IMG/VR virus record: IMGVR_UViG_3300017917_003016
Span: 32,001-96,000 of that record
DNA length: 64,000 nt
Direction: 5' to 3' (one strand)
DNA from: a virus
Lineage: Duplodnaviria; Caudoviricetes
Of this stretch, positions 24,078 to 32,707 are shown piece by piece. Numbering within the stretch: position 1 is the stretch's first letter; every line of letters begins with the position of its first letter. The translations under genes were made by a program, and so were the position numbers. Under the pieces are notes generated by a model. The model did no database searches, was not told the DNA's origin, and saw only the letters and a list, made by a program, of their open reading frames with translations.

Positions 24078-24145
24078 ATTTTGGTTGACCTTTTGGTCCT
24101 GTGAACATATAATAGCAGCATAACGTAACAACACAGGAGCATACA
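24077..24145 (+). promoter_or_regulatory. Early promoter-RBS cassette R1
   Basis: GATTTTGG-TTGACC-N17-TATAAT-AGCAGCATAACGTAACAACACAGGAGCA. Confidence 0.88.
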
Positions 24146-24535
24146 ATGGCATACTTTAGTCAAGAACGCAAGGCTCAAATCGCCCCCAAGGTCAAGAGTA
24201 TCCTGAAGAAGTACGGCCTTAAGGGTAGCCTTAGTGTGCGCAATCACAGCACTGTGGTCTTGACCATCAACAGCGGCAAGATTGACTTTATCGGTAACAA
24301 CCAAGAGACCATGGGTCGCACCTGGGCCCAGCGCCGCACCAATCTTGATGTCAACATTTATCACTATCGTAATCACTTTGACGGTGTTGCACGTGACGCA
24401 CTCGCTGAACTGATTACTGCTCTCAACGACGGCAACTGGGACAACAGCGACATCCAGACCGACTACTTTGACAAGGGTTGGTACGTTAACGTCAATGTTG
24501 GTCGTTGGAACAAGGGTTATATTGTCACTGCCTAA
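24146..24535 (+). CDS. Early protein with an LPD29-like C-terminal motif
   Basis: DNSDIQTDYFDKGWY motif. Confidence 0.5.
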   Translation: MAYFSQERKAQIAPKVKSILKKYGLKGSLSVRNHSTVVLTINSGKIDFIGNNQETMGRTWAQRRTNLDVNIYHYRNHFDGVARDALAELITALNDGNWDNSDIQTDYFDKGWYVNVNVGRWNKGYIVTA

Positions 24536-24545
24536 GGAGGCTAAG

Positions 24546-24692
24546 ATGTTTGATCTTATCGATGACACGGCTGCACTCCACGCTCAATGGGAACTTGAGT
24601 ATCAAGAATGGCTAGGTAGCGAAGCCTGGGTTGAAGTTGTTAACCAGTGGCTTTGTGAATTGGCTAACGAAATGCTCAATGAGGAGGCCTAA
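24546..24692 (+). CDS. Small acidic hypothetical protein
   Basis: AAGGAGG RBS; MFDLIDDT... Confidence 0.65.
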   Translation: MFDLIDDTAALHAQWELEYQEWLGSEAWVEVVNQWLCELANEMLNEEA

Positions 24693-24859
24693 TGGAAAGC
24701 GTTCAAATGAATGAAATTCTGCAGCGCATGGCTCGTGAACGTAATTGTACGGTTTATCAGGTCATTCAAGAGTATTTGAAATACCAATTAAACGGGCAAG
24801 TCAAACACTTTTGGCCTGACCAAAACGAGGCCTGTAGGTCCTATTTGGAGAACAACTGA
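24692..24859 (+). CDS. Small hypothetical protein (55 aa)
   Basis: Manually read MESVQMNEIL...YLENN with a GAGGAGG RBS. Confidence 0.6.
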   Translation: MESVQMNEILQRMARERNCTVYQVIQEYLKYQLNGQVKHFWPDQNEACRSYLENN

Positions 24860-24927
24860 TGAGTCTTATTGGACTTATTGTAATGCTGCTGGTACTTGGT
24901 ATTCTTATTGGAAGGTACATTAGGTGA
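24859..24927 (+). CDS. Small membrane peptide (22 aa)
   Basis: MSLIGLIVMLLVLGILIGRYIR, coupled by a TGATG overlap. Confidence 0.45.
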   Translation: MSLIGLIVMLLVLGILIGRYIR

Positions 24928-25151
24928 CTGCAGAATCTGAGCGTTTTTGTCAACTAATTGATGAATTGAGGCGGGCCTATGTTGCCTCAGATTCTGCAGA
25001 AAGTTCATATGCAAGGCTAGTTGGTGCTCTGGGTGCTATGATACCTTGGTATGTAGACGCTGAAAATCTAGCCAAACTCAACAATGCTCTAGAACAAGCA
25101 GTTAAAAACGAAACTATGAAAATTCTTGGTAAGGAAAATATCCATGCTTGA
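24924..25151 (+). CDS. Hypothetical protein
   Basis: ORF track; GTGA overlap with the previous gene. Confidence 0.55.
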   Translation: MTAESERFCQLIDELRRAYVASDSAESSYARLVGALGAMIPWYVDAENLAKLNNALEQAVKNETMKILGKENIHA

Positions 25152-25533
25152 TCAAGAAAACGAGAAGTTCAACGAAGTTGTGTTTGATGGCATCCGTTTT
25201 CTAGAGAGCCTGACTCGTTATTACGGTGCTGAGCGTGGCATGGAAGTCTGGGAACAGTTGGGTGAAGTTGTAGGCAAGGACGTGCAGGGCCAGGTGTTCT
25301 TTGCCATGCTCACGGGCGATACCAGTAACCGTGTGAGAATCAGCCGCGGCACCTGTAAAGAAGCAGTGACCGCTATCAAGGCCATTCGTCAGGCCACTGG
25401 CATGAGTCTCAAAGAAGCCAAGGATGCCTGGGATCTCACTGCAGTCAAGACCGTGACTCTTGACAATGTTCAGCGCGATGCCAAACAGGAGTTTCTTCGC
25501 GATCTTCGCAGTATTGGTGTGAGGGTTCACTAA
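25144..25533 (+). CDS. Protein with a ribosomal L7/L12 C-terminal-like domain
   Basis: AVTAIKAIRQATGMSLKEAKDAWD resembles bL12 [24 protein letters not shown]. Confidence 0.65.
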   Translation: MLDQENEKFNEVVFDGIRFLESLTRYYGAERGMEVWEQLGEVVGKDVQGQVFFAMLTGDTSNRVRISRGTCKEAVTAIKAIRQATGMSLKEAKDAWDLTAVKTVTLDNVQRDAKQEFLRDLRSIGVRVH

Positions 25534-25534
25534 C

Positions 25535-25999
25535 ATGGCAGAAATTTTTTACCGTAAGGTCGGCCGCCGCTATGTCCCAGTCAGTGAATATGACAACTCT
25601 GTCATGGACAGTTTTCCCTACGGATCTCATCTTGTGGTGGTAAAGCGAGGATCAACTAGCCGCCGCCACAACATTGATCCTGCACACGCACCTATGATCG
25701 CTGCTGGTCTTATTGCTGAAGATGCAGTGAGAGAAGCATTGGTCAAAGCCGGCGAAATTCGCCTGCAACGCCGTGACCGTGAACGTCAACTTACACCCGG
25801 ACAAAAGCAGGCCTGGGATAATCTAGTCAAAGAATTTGGTGACAGTGCCAAACAACTGGAATGGCCCAGCACTGCAGAAGTTGCTGAAGAAGGAGTTAAA
25901 GCCATGCAGCGAGAAGCAGATCAACTGCTGCAGAACCCCTCAGTACGTGCAGCCTATGATCATTTTTTGACAGTCTGCGAACTGTGCCGCGAGCATTAA
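25535..25999 (+). CDS. Hypothetical phage protein
   Basis: ORF track; IFYRKVGRRYVPVSEYD N-terminus. Confidence 0.6.
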   Translation: MAEIFYRKVGRRYVPVSEYDNSVMDSFPYGSHLVVVKRGSTSRRHNIDPAHAPMIAAGLIAEDAVREALVKAGEIRLQRRDRERQLTPGQKQAWDNLVKEFGDSAKQLEWPSTAEVAEEGVKAMQREADQLLQNPSVRAAYDHFLTVCELCREH

Positions 26000-26001
26000 A
26001 A

Positions 26002-26068
26002 TTGGTTGACCTTGCCTGCAGATCACTGTATAATGCTTGCATACGCTAACAAAGCAGGAGTAGACAAC
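26002..26068 (+). promoter_or_regulatory. Early promoter-RBS cassette R2
   Basis: TTGG-TTGACC-N17-TATAAT...CAGGAGTAGACAAC. Confidence 0.82.
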
Positions 26069-26416
26069 ATGGCTTACATCGTTTTCCATTTTGAAACTCG
26101 CCAAATCATCAAGCATTATGCTTCGCGCAAGGGTGCACTGGTTGGTCTCCGTGCTGCTAATCGCAATGCTGGCTATCCGCAGCGTTGGACTCTGTGCAAC
26201 TACGATGTTGATCACGGTGCTCTGCGTGAGTGGTGCGAGACTGCCGATGGCTCCAACGGCTATGCTCCTTATGCTGCTATCGAATCCAACCTGTTTGATC
26301 AACACTATCGTCGCAACATCACGGTGACCAATCTTATGACGGGCAAGCCTGTGGAAATTGACAGCAACACCCCGTGGAGTTGCCGCCCGGACAGCGAAGC
26401 CTACTGGAGTAACTAA
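26069..26416 (+). CDS. Hypothetical early protein
   Basis: Start reassigned to the ATG after the RBS; C-terminal VTNLMTGKPVEIDSNTPWSCRPDSEAYW. Confidence 0.65.
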   Translation: MAYIVFHFETRQIIKHYASRKGALVGLRAANRNAGYPQRWTLCNYDVDHGALREWCETADGSNGYAPYAAIESNLFDQHYRRNITVTNLMTGKPVEIDSNTPWSCRPDSEAYWSN

Positions 26417-26431
26417 TTTAATGAGCCAAAC

Positions 26432-26707
26432 ATGATTAACATTCAATTTAACATTCACAATCCACTAGTTCATCGATTTGTGCCCGTTAAGATATGGCAA
26501 GGTCCAACTCCTATTGAACACAAATTTTGGGAGTTGGAAATCTACAAGAGTTCGGATATTGTTGATGCGTTCTTTCGTTTCGACTGTTGTCAAAGCCATG
26601 CTGGGCTGCATCTAGGTCTAGCACTGCTGGGATACAACATTGAATTTCAAATCTATGACCATCGTCATTGGGACTATGAAGAAGAAGATTGGTATTATAA
26701 TGAATAA
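26432..26707 (+). CDS. Hypothetical protein
   Basis: ORF track. Confidence 0.55.
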   Translation: MINIQFNIHNPLVHRFVPVKIWQGPTPIEHKFWELEIYKSSDIVDAFFRFDCCQSHAGLHLGLALLGYNIEFQIYDHRHWDYEEEDWYYNE

Positions 26708-26852
26708 GGAACTGATTATGAAAACTATTGCACTGGTAATTGCTGTACTGTCGCTGATTTCTTTGGCATTTAACTACTCTGATCCTGCAGCAGCCGCAGG
26801 TTGGGCTGTGGCCTTTGCTGGTTGGATCTTCCACGCACTGGCCAAAGAATAA
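26700..26852 (+). CDS. Small membrane protein
   Basis: Two hydrophobic segments. Confidence 0.55.
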   Translation: MNKELIMKTIALVIAVLSLISLAFNYSDPAAAAGWAVAFAGWIFHALAKE

Positions 26853-26899
26853 AATGAAATTTATGCTGCAACTGGGACTCTGCGGAATCTAAAGACCGT

Positions 26900-27118
26900 A
26901 TGAATCAAAAAATTCGTGAGTTTATTCAAAGGTCTTATCCTCAAGTTGACCTTGACCAAGAAATTGCCAATCGCGATGAATTGCCTAAAGAAGTTGAGCA
27001 TTTGGTTACCCTAGTGGTGGAAGAATGTCTTAAGGTTAGTGGCCGCACCCCCACAGTGTGGCCTTTTGCCTTTATAGATTTTAACAAGGTAATCAGACGA
27101 CATTTTGGCCTAGATTAG
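26900..27118 (+). CDS. Hypothetical protein
   Basis: ORF track; LVVEECL...IRRHFGLD. Confidence 0.55.
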   Translation: MNQKIREFIQRSYPQVDLDQEIANRDELPKEVEHLVTLVVEECLKVSGRTPTVWPFAFIDFNKVIRRHFGLD

Positions 27119-27185
27119 ATTTTGGTTGACCTTTTGTTCCTGTGATCTTATAATAGTGGCATAACGTAAAACACAGGAGCAAGGC
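27118..27185 (+). promoter_or_regulatory. Early promoter-RBS cassette R3
   Basis: Near copy of R1: TTGACC-N17-TATAAT...CATAACGTAAAACACAGGAGCA. Confidence 0.88.
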
Positions 27186-27446
27186 ATGAACAGTCAAGCC
27201 ATTCAAACTGCTATCTATACTTGGGCAACCAACGGTAGTTTTTCTGCACCTTACGGTGTGCTCACTGGCCAACACGCCAGTCGCAATGGTCGCAACTATC
27301 ATTCAGTGACCTTTGGTCGTGCCCGCAGTCTGGACTGCGAAGTGCAGATCTACAACAGGAATTTTATTGTAGTACGTACTAACCGTCATGGTAGCCAGGT
27401 ATTTCGTAACTACCAAGACTGTCAAAACTTCCTGGATACTCTGTAA
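27186..27446 (+). CDS. Hypothetical early protein
   Basis: ORF directly behind R3. Confidence 0.65.
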   Translation: MNSQAIQTAIYTWATNGSFSAPYGVLTGQHASRNGRNYHSVTFGRARSLDCEVQIYNRNFIVVRTNRHGSQVFRNYQDCQNFLDTL

Positions 27447-27458
27447 TTCTTCCAACAG

Positions 27459-27465
27459 ATAAATA
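27459..27465 (+). promoter_or_regulatory. T4-like late promoter inside the early region
   Basis: ATAAATA 18 nt before the ATG at 27483. Confidence 0.55.
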
Positions 27466-27482
27466 TCTAACAAGGACCTGCA

Positions 27483-27665
27483 ATGAAAATCACTGAAGTT
27501 AGCAAGACCAATCGCCAAGCACTGCGCGAAAGCCTTGAACAGTCCAACGATACTGGTTTCAGTGTTGACGACCTTATGACTATCTACGATCTGCACAAGA
27601 ACGGTGATTGGGACTGTGTAGACGCCGATGATGAAATTGCACGTCTTGATGCTATGATTGACTAA
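27483..27665 (+). CDS. Small acidic protein, candidate antitoxin
   Basis: 60 aa, very acidic C-terminal half, directly upstream of the RelE/YafQ-like gene. Confidence 0.45.
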   Translation: MKITEVSKTNRQALRESLEQSNDTGFSVDDLMTIYDLHKNGDWDCVDADDEIARLDAMID

Positions 27666-27670
27666 TCAGT

Positions 27671-28072
27671 ATGCCTGCGCCGCGCGATAATAAACCACAA
27701 ATACAAAGAAAATTTTGGCGCAGTACAGAGTACCGAGATCAGGTCAACCCAGAAAATCCAAATCGAGTCCGCGGTTCAGTCAAAGATTCTCTTAAGAGAT
27801 TTTTGAGCAGCAAAAGAACTAATCCGCAACAGTCCTACGGCAACAAAGACTATCCGTTTACATCAGCAGGGCAATTTGCCCATGAAGTTCCGGGACTGAT
27901 GCATGCTCATTTAAGTCAAGATCTTTCCATAGTCTATAAAGTTCAAGGTAACGAAATATATCTTTTTGGGATATTTTCACATGCTGACCTTGGTACCGGA
28001 AATCCTCCAAATATTCGTAAACAAACTAGTATGGCACGAAGATTTGCCAACATGACCTTTACTGAAGAATGA
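27671..28072 (+). CDS. YafQ/RelE-like mRNA interferase
   Basis: HAHLSQDLSIVYKVQGNEIYLFGIFSHADL resembles the YafQ CH..D.LLIY...L.R.GSHS.L pattern. Confidence 0.55.
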   Translation: MPAPRDNKPQIQRKFWRSTEYRDQVNPENPNRVRGSVKDSLKRFLSSKRTNPQQSYGNKDYPFTSAGQFAHEVPGLMHAHLSQDLSIVYKVQGNEIYLFGIFSHADLGTGNPPNIRKQTSMARRFANMTFTEE

Positions 28073-28076
28073 CTCT

Positions 28077-28141
28077 TTGGTTGACAACCCTGCTCTAGAC
28101 CTGTATAATAGCGGTACAGTGAACAACAAGGAGCAACAACA
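28077..28141 (+). promoter_or_regulatory. Early promoter-RBS cassette R4
   Basis: TTGG-TTGACA-N17-TATAAT...AACAACAAGGAGCA. Confidence 0.82.
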
Positions 28142-28297
28142 ATGACCCACAATGAAATCATGGACGAATGGGCACGTCGACTCAATTACGTTGCACAACT
28201 GTTCCGTGAAGGTGAGATTGATCTGTGTGAGTTTGACGAACGCAACGCTGCGGTGCAAGGTTGGTTTGACACTGAGTATGCCAAGGTAGTTGGTTAA
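28142..28297 (+). CDS. Small early protein (51 aa)
   Basis: Manually read MTHNEIMDEW...AKVVG. Confidence 0.65.
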   Translation: MTHNEIMDEWARRLNYVAQLFREGEIDLCEFDERNAAVQGWFDTEYAKVVG

Positions 28298-28316
28298 TTT
28301 TAACAAGGAGCGCACA

Positions 28317-28406
28317 ATGTATATTCCCCAACCTGTGATTATTTTTGTTGTGTCCCTTCTCATCGGCTACGGCGCTGCTGACATTTTTGCAAAATTCTTC
28401 AATTAA
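28317..28406 (+). CDS. Small membrane peptide (29 aa)
   Basis: MYIPQPVIIFVVSLLIGYGAADIFAKFFN with an AAGGAG RBS. Confidence 0.55.
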   Translation: MYIPQPVIIFVVSLLIGYGAADIFAKFFN

Positions 28407-28431
28407 TCACTTGCTCAATCAGGAGATAACT

Positions 28432-28701
28432 ATGACTGCACAAGAAATCGTTCGCGAGATCGTCACTGGCAACTTCACTGCTGATGAAGTTCGCAGTTTC
28501 TACGACGCCTATAAGTTTGCTGCCAATCAACTGTCGCGCAAGGCAACCTTTACTCTGCGCCGAGGCGACAAGGTCAAGTTCAAGGACCGCTATGGTTTGG
28601 AAGTGATCGGTACTGTGCAGGACATCAAGATCAAGAACGTAGTGGTTAAGACTACGTTGTATACCTACCGTGTGCCGGCTAGCATGGTGACTGCGGCTTA
28701 A
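28432..28701 (+). CDS. Hypothetical protein with an SH3-like C-terminus
   Basis: AGGAGA RBS; GDKVKF...GTVQDIKIKNVVV...YRVPASMV. Confidence 0.65.
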   Translation: MTAQEIVREIVTGNFTADEVRSFYDAYKFAANQLSRKATFTLRRGDKVKFKDRYGLEVIGTVQDIKIKNVVVKTTLYTYRVPASMVTAA

Positions 28702-28703
28702 TT

Positions 28704-28907
28704 ATGATTATTACCGAAGAACGTCAAATGGTTCTGCAGGCAGTGCTTGACGGGCAACTGAGTGCAGATTATGTCACCGACGAAGAACTTATCTTTCTGC
28801 ATCACAGTCTAGCAGATTCTACTATTGAAGAAGCCATGTATGCAGCAGAGTCTCGCAATGATGTGACGGTGTTTGGTCTTGACTGGGAATATGCGCAGCC
28901 CAATTGA
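28704..28907 (+). CDS. Hypothetical protein
   Basis: ORF track. Confidence 0.55.
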   Translation: MIITEERQMVLQAVLDGQLSADYVTDEELIFLHHSLADSTIEEAMYAAESRNDVTVFGLDWEYAQPN

Positions 28908-29106
28908 CACCAAAAGATATCCTTATCAGGTTGTGGTTGTTGAGCCTATACCAGTCATGGCACACATTTGGTTAAAAAATAATCAAATTGATCACAAGGA
29001 CTCCTTTACTGAGGGTGCTGCTGTGGGACAGTTAGATCCTCTGGTGCGTTGTATCTATTTTGCCGATGCTCGTGATGCTGCTTGGTTTGCTTTGAAGTGG
29101 TCATAA
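28891..29106 (+). CDS. Hypothetical protein
   Basis: C-terminal YFADARDAAWFALKW. Confidence 0.55.
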   Translation: MRSPIDTKRYPYQVVVVEPIPVMAHIWLKNNQIDHKDSFTEGAAVGQLDPLVRCIYFADARDAAWFALKWS

Positions 29107-29126
29107 AATTTGAAATTAGGTAAATT

Positions 29127-29318
29127 ATGATAGAAAAAACTAGATTAGATGGATTACTGTTCGCCATGTTAGGCGACAGTCAGTTGGTAGAACGTTGGTG
29201 GTATAGTCCTAACAAGGCCTTTGACTCAGAAAGGCCGATTGATGTTTTTGTACTAGAGCCCGATCGAGTCAGAGACTATGTCATGCGTATGGCCAATCTC
29301 AACAGTGACTACGACTGA
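29127..29318 (+). CDS. Xre/MbcA/ParS antitoxin C-terminal-like domain (DUF2384-like), standalone
   Basis: VERWWYSPNKAFDSERPIDV resembles A..WL..PN.AL.G..P.DL. Confidence 0.55.
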   Translation: MIEKTRLDGLLFAMLGDSQLVERWWYSPNKAFDSERPIDVFVLEPDRVRDYVMRMANLNSDYD

Positions 29319-29384
29319 TTTTGGTTGACATTTTGGTCCGTTGATCGTACAATAGCATCATACTAACAACAACGGAGCAAGACT
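29317..29384 (+). promoter_or_regulatory. Early promoter-RBS cassette R5
   Basis: GATTTTGG-TTGACA-N17-TACAAT...AACAACAACGGAGCA. Confidence 0.85.
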
Positions 29385-30014
29385 ATGGCCTACTACCGCA
29401 AGCACCAAGTGGAAGAACCCCGTTTTACGGTCAAGGAGATTGTGGCCGCAGCCATTATTCAAGATGAACAACATCCCACAAAGGACGGTGTTCCGCTGAC
29501 TACTCGTGACATCCTTGAAAGCACTCCTGTGCTGCCCGTGGCTCGTGCTGAGCAAATGATTGAAGAAGTACAGCAGAATTTTACTCTCAGCATGCTGCGC
29601 GGTCGAGAGTTCAGCAACTTCAATCGCAAGTTGGCAGAAATCATCAGCGAGCCTGAAGCCAAAACCAACAGCAATTTTGGTATCCTTGCTTATGTTCCCA
29701 GTGTTCACCGTGACCTGGTCAAGACCAACACTATTACTGAACAAACCTGTGACAGCCGCTATCAAGGACGCACAGGCGAAACTTTGAATTTTACGGCTCG
29801 CGTGTTGAACTGCCGTTACATTGCCAGTTATGGTTTCTATACCGCACTGTTGCTTGACGACACCGGTAACGTCTACAGTTTCAGTCCTAAGGCTTCGCTA
29901 GATGAAGGTGCGACTGTGACCATCCGTGGCAAGGTCAAGGCACACAAGCAGGACAAGTACAACAACAACGTTGAGACTACCTATCTCAACTATGTCAAGA
30001 TTCAAAAAAATTAA
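29385..30014 (+). CDS. Early protein with a probable C-terminal OB fold
   Basis: beta-strand-rich C-terminus ending IRGKVKAHKQD...TTYLNYVKI. Confidence 0.5.
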   Translation: MAYYRKHQVEEPRFTVKEIVAAAIIQDEQHPTKDGVPLTTRDILESTPVLPVARAEQMIEEVQQNFTLSMLRGREFSNFNRKLAEIISEPEAKTNSNFGILAYVPSVHRDLVKTNTITEQTCDSRYQGRTGETLNFTARVLNCRYIASYGFYTALLLDDTGNVYSFSPKASLDEGATVTIRGKVKAHKQDKYNNNVETTYLNYVKIQKN

Positions 30015-30018
30015 ACAA

Positions 30019-30088
30019 GATTTGGTTGACAGGCTTACCAAAATATCATATAATAGCATCATAACGTAACAACACAGGAGCAGCACAA
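30019..30088 (+). promoter_or_regulatory. Early promoter-RBS cassette R6
   Basis: TTGACA-N17-TATAAT-AGCATCATAACGTAACAACACAGGAGCA; 3' part nearly identical to R1. Confidence 0.87.
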
Positions 30089-30490
30089 ATGGCCAAGATC
30101 TACACCTTCGACGAGAACATTGTTAGCGATCTGTACAAGGATGCCTATGGTCACCGCCCGGGCCAATCGTTCTGGGAAATGTGGAAGACTGTCACCGACC
30201 GTGACCGCCAAGAAATTTGGGACAACCTGCTTGAGGCTCTGGACCGTGCCGTTGAGCAAGAACGTGCTGCCCGGACTCGTGCCGAGCATGACTTCCAGTT
30301 CACTATTGCTAGCCTGATGCATGCAGGTGCCAAGGACTTTGAAATGGCCGTTCGTTGGCTACATGACGCAAACGACACCCAAGGTGACGATGAGTACCTG
30401 GAGTACAAGTTGGGAATTGGCTACGGCTATATCCGCGAGGCTCGTGAGTCCATGCAGGTTGCCAATGAACTGCTGGCACAAACCGCATAA
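30089..30490 (+). CDS. Hypothetical early protein
   Basis: SDLYKDAYGHRP motif. Confidence 0.65.
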   Translation: MAKIYTFDENIVSDLYKDAYGHRPGQSFWEMWKTVTDRDRQEIWDNLLEALDRAVEQERAARTRAEHDFQFTIASLMHAGAKDFEMAVRWLHDANDTQGDDEYLEYKLGIGYGYIREARESMQVANELLAQTA

Positions 30491-30570
30491 GTGGTTGACA
30501 ACTAGATCCAAAGATCATATAATACTGAAACTGTAGTACAAAACACAATAACTTTTCAGGAGCATAGACA
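30491..30570 (+). promoter_or_regulatory. Early promoter R7
   Basis: GTGG-TTGACA-N17-TATAAT...CAGGAGCATAGACA. Confidence 0.82.
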
Positions 30571-31398
30571 ATGAAGACTACCACTCGTACTCGCGTTCGT
30601 ATTGCCAAGGCCCCGGTCAAGACTGAAGCCCAGCGCATGCAGGAGATTGCTGAACGTTTTGAAATCCTGGATGAAATGGCCAAGGCCACTACCAACGGTG
30701 ATATCCGTGCTATGATTGTTTCGGGCCCTCCGGGTGTGGGCAAGAGTTTTGGCATCGAGCGTGTTATTGACAAGGCTGTGTTGTTTGACCAAGTGGCCGG
30801 CAAGCGTCTGCGCTGCGAAGTGGTCAAGGGTGCTGCCAGTGCCATTGGCCTGTATACCACTCTGTACAAGTACAGTGATCCTAACTGTGTTGTGGTGTTC
30901 GATGACTGTGATAGCATCCTGTTGGACGATGTCTGTCTTAACCTGCTTAAGGGTGCACTGGACTCGGGCAAGAAGCGCCGCATTTCGTGGCTCAGCGACA
31001 GCAACATTCTGCGCCGCGAAGGTGTGCCTAATCAGTTCGACTTCAAGGGTGCTGTGATCTTTATCACCAACCTTAAGTTTGATGACATGAAGAGCAAGAA
31101 GTTGGCTGACCACCTTGAGGCTCTGCAAAGCCGTTGCCACTACATTGACCTGGCTCTGGACACTACTGAAGACAAGATTCTGCGTATCAAGCAGATTGCT
31201 GCTACTGGTGAACTGTTCCAAGATTATGAGTTTGATCAGTGCGTTCAGGACGAAATCATCGAGTTTATGACTACTAACAGCAGTCATCTTCGTGAAATCA
31301 GTCTGCGTATGGCCATCAAGATTGCTGACCTGCGCAAGAGTTTCCCTGTCAAGTGGCAGGCCCTGGCTCGTACTACCTGTATGAAGGCCGCGGCGTAA
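30571..31398 (+). CDS. AAA+ ATPase
   Basis: Walker A GPPGVGKS; Walker B VVVFDDCD; NLLKGALD, IFITN and ALQSRC motifs. Confidence 0.88.
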   Translation: MKTTTRTRVRIAKAPVKTEAQRMQEIAERFEILDEMAKATTNGDIRAMIVSGPPGVGKSFGIERVIDKAVLFDQVAGKRLRCEVVKGAASAIGLYTTLYKYSDPNCVVVFDDCDSILLDDVCLNLLKGALDSGKKRRISWLSDSNILRREGVPNQFDFKGAVIFITNLKFDDMKSKKLADHLEALQSRCHYIDLALDTTEDKILRIKQIAATGELFQDYEFDQCVQDEIIEFMTTNSSHLREISLRMAIKIADLRKSFPVKWQALARTTCMKAAA

Positions 31399-31409
31399 TC
31401 AATTTTGTC

Positions 31410-31489
31410 TGAGGTAATAACTCCACGTGATAACTATTTTTTGCAGTACCTCGGCGCACTTTTTATTGTCTAGCTCCTAGTGCATCGAG
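31410..31489 (+). ncRNA. Candidate structured 3'UTR or small RNA with an anti-RBS loop
   Basis: Stem 31450-31460/31479-31489; the loop carries ATTGTCTAGCTCCT, complementary to early translation starts. Confidence 0.45.
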
Positions 31490-31493
31490 TTTT

Positions 31494-31522
31494 AAGCCCA
31501 GAGTTTTCTCTGGGCTTTTTTT
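31494..31522 (+). terminator. Rho-independent terminator
   Basis: AAGCCCAGAG-TTTT-CTCTGGGCTT followed by TTTTT. Confidence 0.88.
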
Positions 31523-31567
31523 ACCTTAACAGTTGCATTTGTTTTCAACAAACTATATACTAATAAG

Positions 31568-32707
31568 ATGACCAAATATTCATATGTTGAAGACTATCTA
31601 GAACTCCTAGCAGGCTACGAACCTAACAACCTGCTCAATCAGTTTACGTATTCTTTGCCAGGTAAGATAGTTAAACTGGCCCGTTATGACATCAGTGTGG
31701 TAGAAAACATGGCCAACAACACCATATGGGGTACTGCACTAACTGATCGTCAGGCGGAATTGGCAGTCAAGTTGATTTTGAAATATCGCAGACAATTTGC
31801 TGCCAAAGGTATAGATGTTAGTCCGGTTGAAACACCCACCTTTCGAATCCCAATTAGAAAAATTGATCGAACAAAGAGCATCATACTTGATCAAGATCTC
31901 GTAAAAATTAGATTTCCCTATGATCAAAAGTATATCGATGCCATGCAAAATTTGCAGAAGCAAAACAAAGGGCTAGTGACCTTTGATAGACACTCTAAGA
32001 CATGGCAGTCCAGAATAACCGAATATACTATTAACTATCTTGTGGCCTGGGGCGAGGCCAATGACTTTGCAATCTGCGACGGTGTTAGGTCACTGATGAA
32101 TATAATTGATGCCTGTGGACAAACTTCCTACGAAATAAAATTAGTCACTACAGACCAAGGTTTTGCCATTACCAATGCAGCCAAATCTTTAGTTGACTAC
32201 GTCGACAATCACATCGGTGGATTTGCACACGACAACGTGATAAAACTAGTTGATCATGCGGGGCTCTTGGGTTACACCGTAGACGACAGTATACTCGCGC
32301 AAGTGCCCGGCTTTCTGACTCAGATTGGCCCAAACCACTCAACACACCTATCGCCCACTAGCGAGAATTTTGAAAGAATTTTAGACTATGCCAAACTTAC
32401 CAATAGGTATCCTATTTGCATTTATGAACCGGGTGCTATCGGAGTTAACAGCACCATAGATCTAAGTCAATTTAGCGAACAAGACATTCTTCGTTTTGAC
32501 CACAACGGTAAAACTAAGACTAGAAATTACAACCTTAGTGACGTTAAAATTGTACATGCAAAAAAGATTCCATCGCACTGGAACTTTTCAGTTCCCTTGC
32601 TAGTGACCACAGTAGAAATGATGTATGGTGGTCGTAGAGTTGACTGGACTCGCCGTGCTGAAAGAATAATTTATTTTACAAATGCAATGCTCAGGGACAC
32701 TGCCTAA
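31568..32707 (+). CDS. Hypothetical protein coupled to the helicase
   Basis: ORF track; ALTDRQAELAVKLILKYRRQ; upstream TTGCAT-N17-TATACT. Confidence 0.65.
   Translation: MTKYSYVEDYLELLAGYEPNNLLNQFTYSLPGKIVKLARYDISVVENMANNTIWGTALTDRQAELAVKLILKYRRQFAAKGIDVSPVETPTFRIPIRKIDRTKSIILDQDLVKIRFPYDQKYIDAMQNLQKQNKGLVTFDRHSKTWQSRITEYTINYLVAWGEANDFAICDGVRSLMNIIDACGQTSYEIKLVTTDQGFAITNAAKSLVDYVDNHIGGFAHDNVIKLVDHAGLLGYTVDDSILAQVPGFLTQIGPNHSTHLSPTSENFERILDYAKLTNRYPICIYEPGAIGVNSTIDLSQFSEQDILRFDHNGKTKTRNYNLSDVKIVHAKKIPSHWNFSVPLLVTTVEMMYGGRRVDWTRRAERIIYFTNAMLRDTA

Follow-up and report, generated by a model that had tools for sequence, protein, structure and literature searches.

What role does the structured RNA play that separates the AAA+ ATPase gene of this phage from the next promoter, and does its loop, complementary to the ATPase's own ribosome-binding site and start codon, act on that start? 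The window (the whole stretch of 64,000 nt analysed here) comprises bases 32,001 to 96,000 of a 201.7-kb IMG/VR virus record with a CheckV completeness of 56%. Contigs related to it reach 300-354 kb, which identifies the source as a jumbo phage, and the family that bears the module described below is one of jumbo phages, uncultured and with genomes of about 300-350 kb. Among cultured phages, the closest homologue of the ATPase (48% identity) is that of the Pseudomonas jumbo phage PA5oct. A sequence-only reading had drawn attention to the locus, and its coordinates and sequences were exact on re-check. The features of the locus are as follows.

30495..30523, + strand: consensus sigma70-type early promoter of the ATPase unit (TTGACA, 17 nt, TATAAT), predicted transcript start at about 30530
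30553..30576, + strand: ATPase translation initiation region, with the Shine-Dalgarno (SD) sequence AGGAG at 30558-30562 and AUG at 30571-30573; predicted partner of the loop
30571..31398, + strand: AAA+ ATPase gene (275 aa, PHROG 1250), first cistron of the unit
31450..31489, + strand: conserved hairpin, arms 31450-31460 and 31479-31489 around an 18-nt loop at 31461-31478 (UUUUAUUGUCUAGCUCCU); family core UAGCUCCU
31494..31524, + strand: intrinsic terminator at the 3′ end of the ATPase unit; stem 31494-31517 of 10 bp (6 G-C) with a 4-nt loop, then a T-run
31533..31570, + strand: promoter of the next gene (TTGCAT, 17 nt, TATACT; boxes at 31533-31561), with the same layout in all relatives that have the gene
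31568..32707, + strand: predicted leaderless gene of 379 aa, with weak likeness to the N-terminal part of SNF2 helicases

A conserved hairpin at the end of the ATPase unit

Seven sigma70 promoters close to consensus lie in the surrounding early region (24-31.5 kb of the window), and a short leader with a ribosome site of the type CAGGAGCA..ACAATG follows each of them. These seven cassettes (window 24085-30523) share GGTTGAC..N17..TATAAT, and their leaders end in CAGGAGCA. Their typical SD is GGAGC, not GGAGG; genome-wide, C follows in only 19 of 77 GGAG-type start regions. Of 46 distinct upstream regions in relatives, 36 have an equivalent promoter, by a strict pattern, 24-40 nt upstream of the ATPase AUG, and most of the regions failing that pattern have GTAGAC-N17-TATAAT, so that nearly all loci have an ATPase promoter of their own. 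Together with the order of hairpin and terminator, this indicates that the module marks the 3′ end of a unit that starts at the ATPase start region. In the window the anti-SD sequence lies in the 3′ UTR of the same predicted transcript as the matching SD (promoter 30495, start 30553-30576, loop 31461-31478, terminator 31494). The ATPases of the window (275 aa), L002 and L005 are without the N-terminal extension of about 87 aa that is common in relatives (compared over L003-L081); upstream of the window ATPase there is instead a separate 133-aa gene (30089-30490, PHROG 21968).

The anti-start sequence ATTGTCTAGCTCCT (31465-31478) falls inside the 18-nt loop. The hairpin stem has 11 positions, including one G-U and one C-A mismatch, and five perfect pairs (GCACT/AGTGC) close the loop. 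A 135-nt region folds with a z-score of -4.2 relative to shuffles, its minimum free energy (MFE) structure including both the hairpin and the terminator, and a covariance model matches the window at 31448-31523 with 23 bits (E = 0.006). A competing stem that had been proposed to overlap the 5′ arm (31409-31416/31447-31454) can be drawn, with 8 bp and one G-U, but was rejected as it is neither in the MFE structure nor conserved. The segment upstream of the hairpin in which that stem lies is missing in most relatives, where the hairpin begins 0-14 nt past a stop codon; in the other loci, additional small genes, amounting to 0.1-2.7 kb, separate the hairpin from the ATPase. A strong terminator between the two is usually absent, even with these intervening genes.

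A search with the ATPase protein retrieved at least 253 relatives, of which 80, at about 73-77% identity, were examined, giving 81 loci with the window. The module was present within 3 kb downstream of the ATPase in 55 of these 81 loci. The 38 distinct hairpins all differ in the stem, with pairing kept; stem length is 5-14 bp, in most cases 7-10. At each of the seven stem positions nearest the loop, every one of the four Watson-Crick pair types is seen. The core of the loop, U[A/G]GCUCCU, shows little or no variation, with flanks that depend on the clade. When the relatives were aligned to the covariance model, which was built from a uniform clade, 8 of 8 hairpin pairs changed on both sides and 93% of cells were paired. 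The hairpin covariation score was 0.63, compared with 0.17 in shuffles and 0.03-0.09 for slid partners, in this alignment fitted to the model. The terminator helix had 99.6% of cells paired, with 7 of 7 pairs co-varying. A plain MAFFT/RNAalifold alignment of the relatives recovered the terminator only, because loop lengths differ. The structured RNA that had been read 3′ of the ATPase, before a strong terminator, is thus borne out as a conserved RNA hairpin, and the observation of an anti-ribosome-site hairpin at the end of the ATPase unit is confirmed.

The module occurs in one copy per genome in six genomes of 112-354 kb, and a multi-copy repeat was rejected for this reason. Coding on the minus strand was likewise rejected, given the free variation of the stems and the lack of a conserved ORF. 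The B-type loop of 19 nt, which belongs to the largest clade, has one exact match in each of 64 IMG/VR contigs, at least one of these matches being spurious: the 19-mer of G007 is just a normal start site, on the other strand. A scan of IMG/VR with the 14-mer A-type loop gave more than 120 matches, which were mostly chance and uninformative. Megablast of the region against 50,697 phage records returned no match, and the 7.8 kb examined around the PA5oct ATPase homologue contained no such hairpin. Rfam 15 assigned no family to the window, with only sub-threshold, terminator-driven matches (RF02278, 21.6 bits against 50; RF02837, 20.9 against 49.5), and four related loci had no match at the Rfam gathering thresholds.

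Other small elements were observed in the neighbourhood of the module. A second conserved non-coding motif, ...GCCGUGUGCGUAAC(G)GGCAAUGUCAAUAAGUCCC(G)UUUCGAUAA, forms a short hairpin with a conserved 14-nt loop (CAAUGUCAAUAAGU) and has no Rfam match. It was found at L017:3357-3420, after the ATPase stop in L003, L012, L014, L018, L036, L038, L043 and L048, and just upstream of the hairpin in L046 and L013. Between ATPase and hairpin, at L026:1555-1650 and in L008, L033, L053, L063 and L070, there is an ORF of some 30 codons whose peptide (MVWFFAILLLLAGQPLLAFALAAIALMIKS type) would be very hydrophobic; it does not occur in the window. At L044:3765-3785 and in other members of the largest clade, the stop codon of the ATPase lies within a mini-hairpin of 5 bp, UCUGC-GUAA-GCAGA, which immediately precedes the anti-SD hairpin.

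Predicted pairing of the loop with the ATPase start

In the window genome the loop pairs fully with 30553-30576, covering SD, spacer and AUG, at -23.5 kcal/mol (RNAduplex), the duplex of 18-19 bp having one bulged A and G-U pairs at its end. None of 200 loops shuffled with CUCCU kept reached this value at the ATPase start (mean -10.7), and any of the 469 candidate start regions of the genome reached it in 1% of shuffled loops. The description of the loop as an anti-SD/anti-start sequence, complementary to the ribosome-binding site and start of the ATPase, therefore stands. When the 125 nt past each stop codon were paired with the gene's own start, the ATPase ranked only 3rd of 218 genes, which places the single-genome signal in a tail of about 1%. 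It is conservation in relatives, not the single-genome signal, that makes the match of loop and start convincing. The first-ranked pair of this kind, that of gene 121,061, is a long duplex with gaps, and the GTG start involved is doubtful. Pairing of the loop with two further early-gene starts, also pointed out in the sequence-only reading, does exist, but it is weak and goes little beyond generic SD complementarity.

26056..26071, + strand: R2 early-gene start region (AGGAGTAGACAACATG); weak loop partner, -15.1, rank 12 of 469
29373..29387, + strand: R5 early-gene start region (CGGAGCAAGACTATG); weak loop partner, -15.6, rank 10 of 469

A fold-back of roughly 900 nt had been suggested for the finished ATPase mRNA, and this is what the thermodynamic fold of the whole predicted 995-nt mRNA (30530-31524) gives: the duplex of start and loop is in the MFE structure, with predicted pair probabilities of 0.9-1.0 (30558-30575 with 31462-31478). 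In full-length folds of 12 relatives, the probability of SD-loop pairing was 0.7 or more for five of them, 0.2-0.4 for three and close to 0 for the other four, all as thermodynamic folds that leave out translation and co-transcriptional folding.

Across relatives, each loop pairs better with its own ATPase start than with those of others. The mean for 22 distinct loops was -16.8 kcal/mol, compared with -13.9 +/- 0.5 when partners were permuted (p ~5e-5). Matches specific to a lineage are UUUUAGCUCCUA with UAGGAGCUAAA in L013, UCUAGCUCCUA with UAGGAGCUAGA in L046, GUUAGCUCCU with AGGAGCUAAC in the separate lineages L016 and L022, GGUUGGCUCC with GGAGCCAACC in L051, L057 and L073, and UUGUCUAGCUCCU with AGGAGC(N)UAGACAA in the window and L021. 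On the ATPase tree, the change of A to G in the loop before GCUCC (giving UGGCUCC) has at least three origins, namely L010 (whose ATPase start, a TTG, was identified by eye), L025 and the L051/L054/L073 group. Each of these comes with GGAGCC for GGAGCU, a U-to-C change, in the start region. GGAGC was present in the ATPase start of 21 of 22 hairpin-bearing lineages, compared with 2 of 8 that have the downstream gene but verifiably no hairpin (Fisher p = 0.0003). In L022 and L016, the loop positions of the covariance model also matched, independently and on the opposite strand, the start region of the ATPase. When loop-start pairs were counted from an anchor and without gaps, the excess was modest (1.5 contiguous pairs for own against 1.0 for cross combinations); bulges matter here. 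The covariation points to direct RNA-RNA pairing between loop and start.

The covariation between element and ribosome-binding site expected from the earlier reading is thus present, but it does not extend at full length to all lineages. In the largest clade, with the loop UUUUG[A/U]UAGCUCCUUUU, complementarity to the ATPase start is limited to AAAGGAGC(U), some 8-9 bp of generic anti-SD, and several of its lineages have an A-C mismatch, with GGAGCC opposite AGCUCC. The best local partner there is often the gene just upstream of the ATPase (AAGGAGC-G-UAACAAA, one bulge). The long start-specific duplex is therefore lineage-specific. Furthermore, the U two positions before GCUCC is invariant without an invariant A in the ATPase start, so the core may answer to another constraint. 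SD sequences, moreover, will be found by any CUCC-containing loop.

Other partners and other roles for the hairpin

The loop also has partners elsewhere, which favour an action mainly in trans. On this account a 3′-end-derived sRNA, a stable fragment of about 75 nt made up of hairpin and terminator and produced from strong early promoters, would repress GGAGC-type genes (the csgF/csgG/curlin-like module and early cassettes), with the ATPase just one target. We consider this unlikely as the main role. In its favour, the ATPase is outdone as a partner in the 201-kb genome by a csgF-like gene 55 kb away, whose start at genome position 118,895 ranks best (-27.6), with a perfect 14-mer followed by a G-U and four A-U pairs; only 0.5% of shuffled loops equal this pairing. 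Three start regions of the curli module (csgF, curlin-like and csgG) rank 1, 3 and 7 among the 469 loop partners, and AGGAGCU occurs only three times in the genome, in two start regions and as the antisense of the loop itself. In G005, a relative with the same loop, the csgF homologue keeps 13 of 14 complementary positions, the proteins being only 50% identical. The layout of loop seed, U-rich spacer and U-tailed terminator also resembles that of known 3′UTR-derived sRNAs.

Several results weigh against a mainly trans-acting RNA. A csgF homologue was found in one of five large relatives and is missing from the other four. In a matrix of genomes by loops, own-genome enrichment of start-region partners was seen only in G000/G005 and G004, with none in G001-G003 relative to other genomes. 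Whole-contig scans of the B-type genomes G006 and G008 showed no start-region enrichment over loops with shuffled flanks. The family of targets suggested earlier is thus plausible in this genome, where the top partners are all real starts, but finds no echo in these two genomes of the largest clade. In addition, neither a promoter nor a processing site could be demonstrated for an sRNA of its own, and the covariation observed is with the ATPase start region.

The curli/type VIII secretion module itself lies outside the window, at genome positions 118,895-121,057 (L082:1896-4058). Its genes are csgF (PF10614, 4.7e-11), csgG (PF03783, 3.4e-50) and a gene for a secreted protein with curlin-like repeats (a sub-threshold Curlin_rpt Pfam match).

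Position raises a different question. The element had been taken as a 3′ element of the ATPase, yet the features that accompany it most constantly are the terminator and the leaderless gene downstream, rather than the stop codon of the ATPase. In every hairpin locus the hairpin is followed, in this order, by the terminator, a sigma70 promoter and the leaderless homologue of 31568-32707; a UvsW-like helicase gene comes next after 31568-32707. The ATG of 31568-32707 stands 6 nt past the -10 box, and its mRNA is therefore predicted to be leaderless. Sigma70-type promoters whose -10 box stands 5-8 nt ahead of an ATG that opens an ORF of 80 aa or more, likewise predicted to give leaderless mRNAs, number 4 in G000, 7 in G005, 10 in G001, 21 in G002, 17 in G003 and 10 in G004.

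The hairpin could accordingly be a site for binding or processing rather than a pairing regulator: a target for an RNA-binding protein, an RNase III/E site, a 3′ stabiliser, or an aid to termination or antitermination where the early unit gives way to the leaderless replication genes, the anti-SD likeness being incidental to a U/C-rich recognition loop. The tightest positional link, which holds even where the ATPase is 2.7 kb off, speaks for such a site, as do a 9-nt core U[A/G]GCUCCU far more constant than the proposed targets and a complementarity to starts that, in the largest clade, is no better than that of shuffled loop flanks. We nevertheless regard it as doubtful, given the covariation of loop and start with at least three independent A-U to G-C double changes, and the loss of GGAGC from the start where the hairpin is missing. 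No candidate emerged for a protein that binds it. A DNA operator for the downstream promoter was rejected because the spacing between the loop and the -35 box of that promoter ranges from about 47 to 60 nt among loci, and because what the arms keep is complementarity, not sequence. Finally, it is very improbable that the long loop-ATPase duplex is a coincidence, or a functionless remnant of an inverted duplication of an early start cassette, for although the early cassettes are repeated and alike and the ATPase pair is only third within its genome, this is opposed by the 55 loci, the free covariation of the stem, the invariant core, the single copy, the fixed position, and the shuffle and permutation tests.

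A candidate translation switch and its known counterparts

The reading that we favour, with moderate confidence, is that the element is the 3′-terminal module of the ATPase early unit, an anti-ribosome-site hairpin with a terminator that acts as a 5′-3′ lock like those of icaR and hok, and maybe also in trans. From structure, conservation, single copy, position, complementarity and covariation we infer that the pairing occurs inside the cell and represses translation, so that the module is probably a built-in switch that shuts off early-gene translation. The two ends of one mRNA would be complementary, with SD, spacer and AUG at the 5′ end and an exposed loop at the 3′ end. During synthesis of the mRNA of about 1 kb the start site would be free and ribosomes could load. 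Once the hairpin has been transcribed, its loop would pair with a ribosome-free SD and start on the same or a sister molecule, and this pairing would block binding of the 30S subunit, as in icaR. The duplex might be a substrate for RNase III, or the result might be a closed, stable and silent mRNA. The outcome would be a limited burst of ATPase per transcript. A nuclease-resistant hairpin-terminator fragment could in addition act in trans on other GGAGC-type starts, such as those of the csgF-like, curlin-like and other early genes. Action in cis and action in trans are both compatible with the data, and computation cannot separate the two.

A broader version, which we think quite improbable, would make the hairpin RNA a temporal switch of translation. 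It would build up from the strong early promoters, mask the private GGAGC-type SDs of the early regulon and the curli-like module, and hand ribosomes to the many leaderless mRNAs of the family, which need no SD; in every relative, the first leaderless gene begins 44 nt past the terminator of the hairpin. Such a switch would be an RNA counterpart of RegA/RegB of phage T4, tied to translation in two classes, SD-led and leaderless.

If the favoured lock or a related anti-SD action were confirmed, these phages would time early protein output by a self-closing mRNA or an anti-SD RNA, which would replace a protein repressor, and the unusual GGAGC sites of the early genes would serve as a private address for the hairpin RNA. 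A compact natural part of about 40 nt could then limit translation per transcript. The constant partnership with the leaderless gene also raises a possible tie between anti-SD RNAs and leaderless translation.

To our knowledge, end-to-end pairing that hides the ribosome-binding site of a bacterial mRNA is limited to very few cases, icaR, hok and hbs. A literature search found no description of such a module in phages, nor of an end-to-end lock in a phage lytic programme. The element belongs to none of icaR, hok, hbs or c4/CI: it has no sequence or covariance-model relationship to them and no toxin gene, and its position and fold are different.

In the icaR mRNA of Staphylococcus aureus, an anti-SD sequence in the 3′ UTR pairs with the mRNA's own SD, blocks formation of the initiation complex and creates a substrate for RNase III (PMC3868564). 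The phage element is also a 3′UTR anti-SD that matches the SD of the same mRNA, a likeness by analogy only. However, icaR carries UCCCCUG in a long 3′ UTR, whereas in the phage GCUCCU sits in a short hairpin loop abutting the terminator, and the two have no sequence relationship. The phage case also differs in concerning an early operon, in a duplex that covers spacer and AUG (14-19 bp) in some lineages, and in that its pairing is predicted.

In the hok mRNA of plasmid R1 (hok/sok), a 3′-terminal element pairs with the 5′ end of the full-length mRNA (fbi/tac) and keeps the mRNA silent. The analogy with hok drawn in the sequence-only reading holds for the fold-back, as the 3′ end of the phage mRNA pairs with its 5′ end in the predicted full-length fold, with pair probabilities of about 1. 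It does not hold for the gene, since the phage unit encodes a 275-aa AAA+ ATPase and has neither a toxin gene nor an overlapping leader reading frame of the mok type.

The hbs mRNA of Bacillus subtilis has a 14-bp pairing between its 5′ and 3′ UTRs, by which an RNase Y site in the leader is shielded and the mRNA made more stable (PMC5737220). Long-range pairing between both UTRs of one mRNA, tied to translation initiation, is common to hbs and the phage element. However, the hbs pairing leaves the SD uncovered, whereas the predicted phage duplex covers it.

The c4 antisense RNA of phages P1 and P7 and the CI RNA of P4 come from the same strand and transcription unit as their targets, and their loops pair with a ribosome-binding site or elsewhere within that transcript. 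RNase P excises c4, which is located upstream of its target. In contrast, the phage element stands at the 3′ end by the terminator, its size and fold are different, and it has no match to the Rfam C4 family (RF01695). A further likeness is to the 3′UTR-derived Hfq-type sRNAs (CpxQ, DapZ and SroC), with which the C-rich loops of S. aureus RNAIII may be grouped in this respect. Such sRNAs use the terminator of the parent mRNA and have a conserved single-stranded seed before it, and their seeds target SD regions. In the phage element, too, the conserved single-stranded seed sits directly upstream of the terminator of the parent mRNA.
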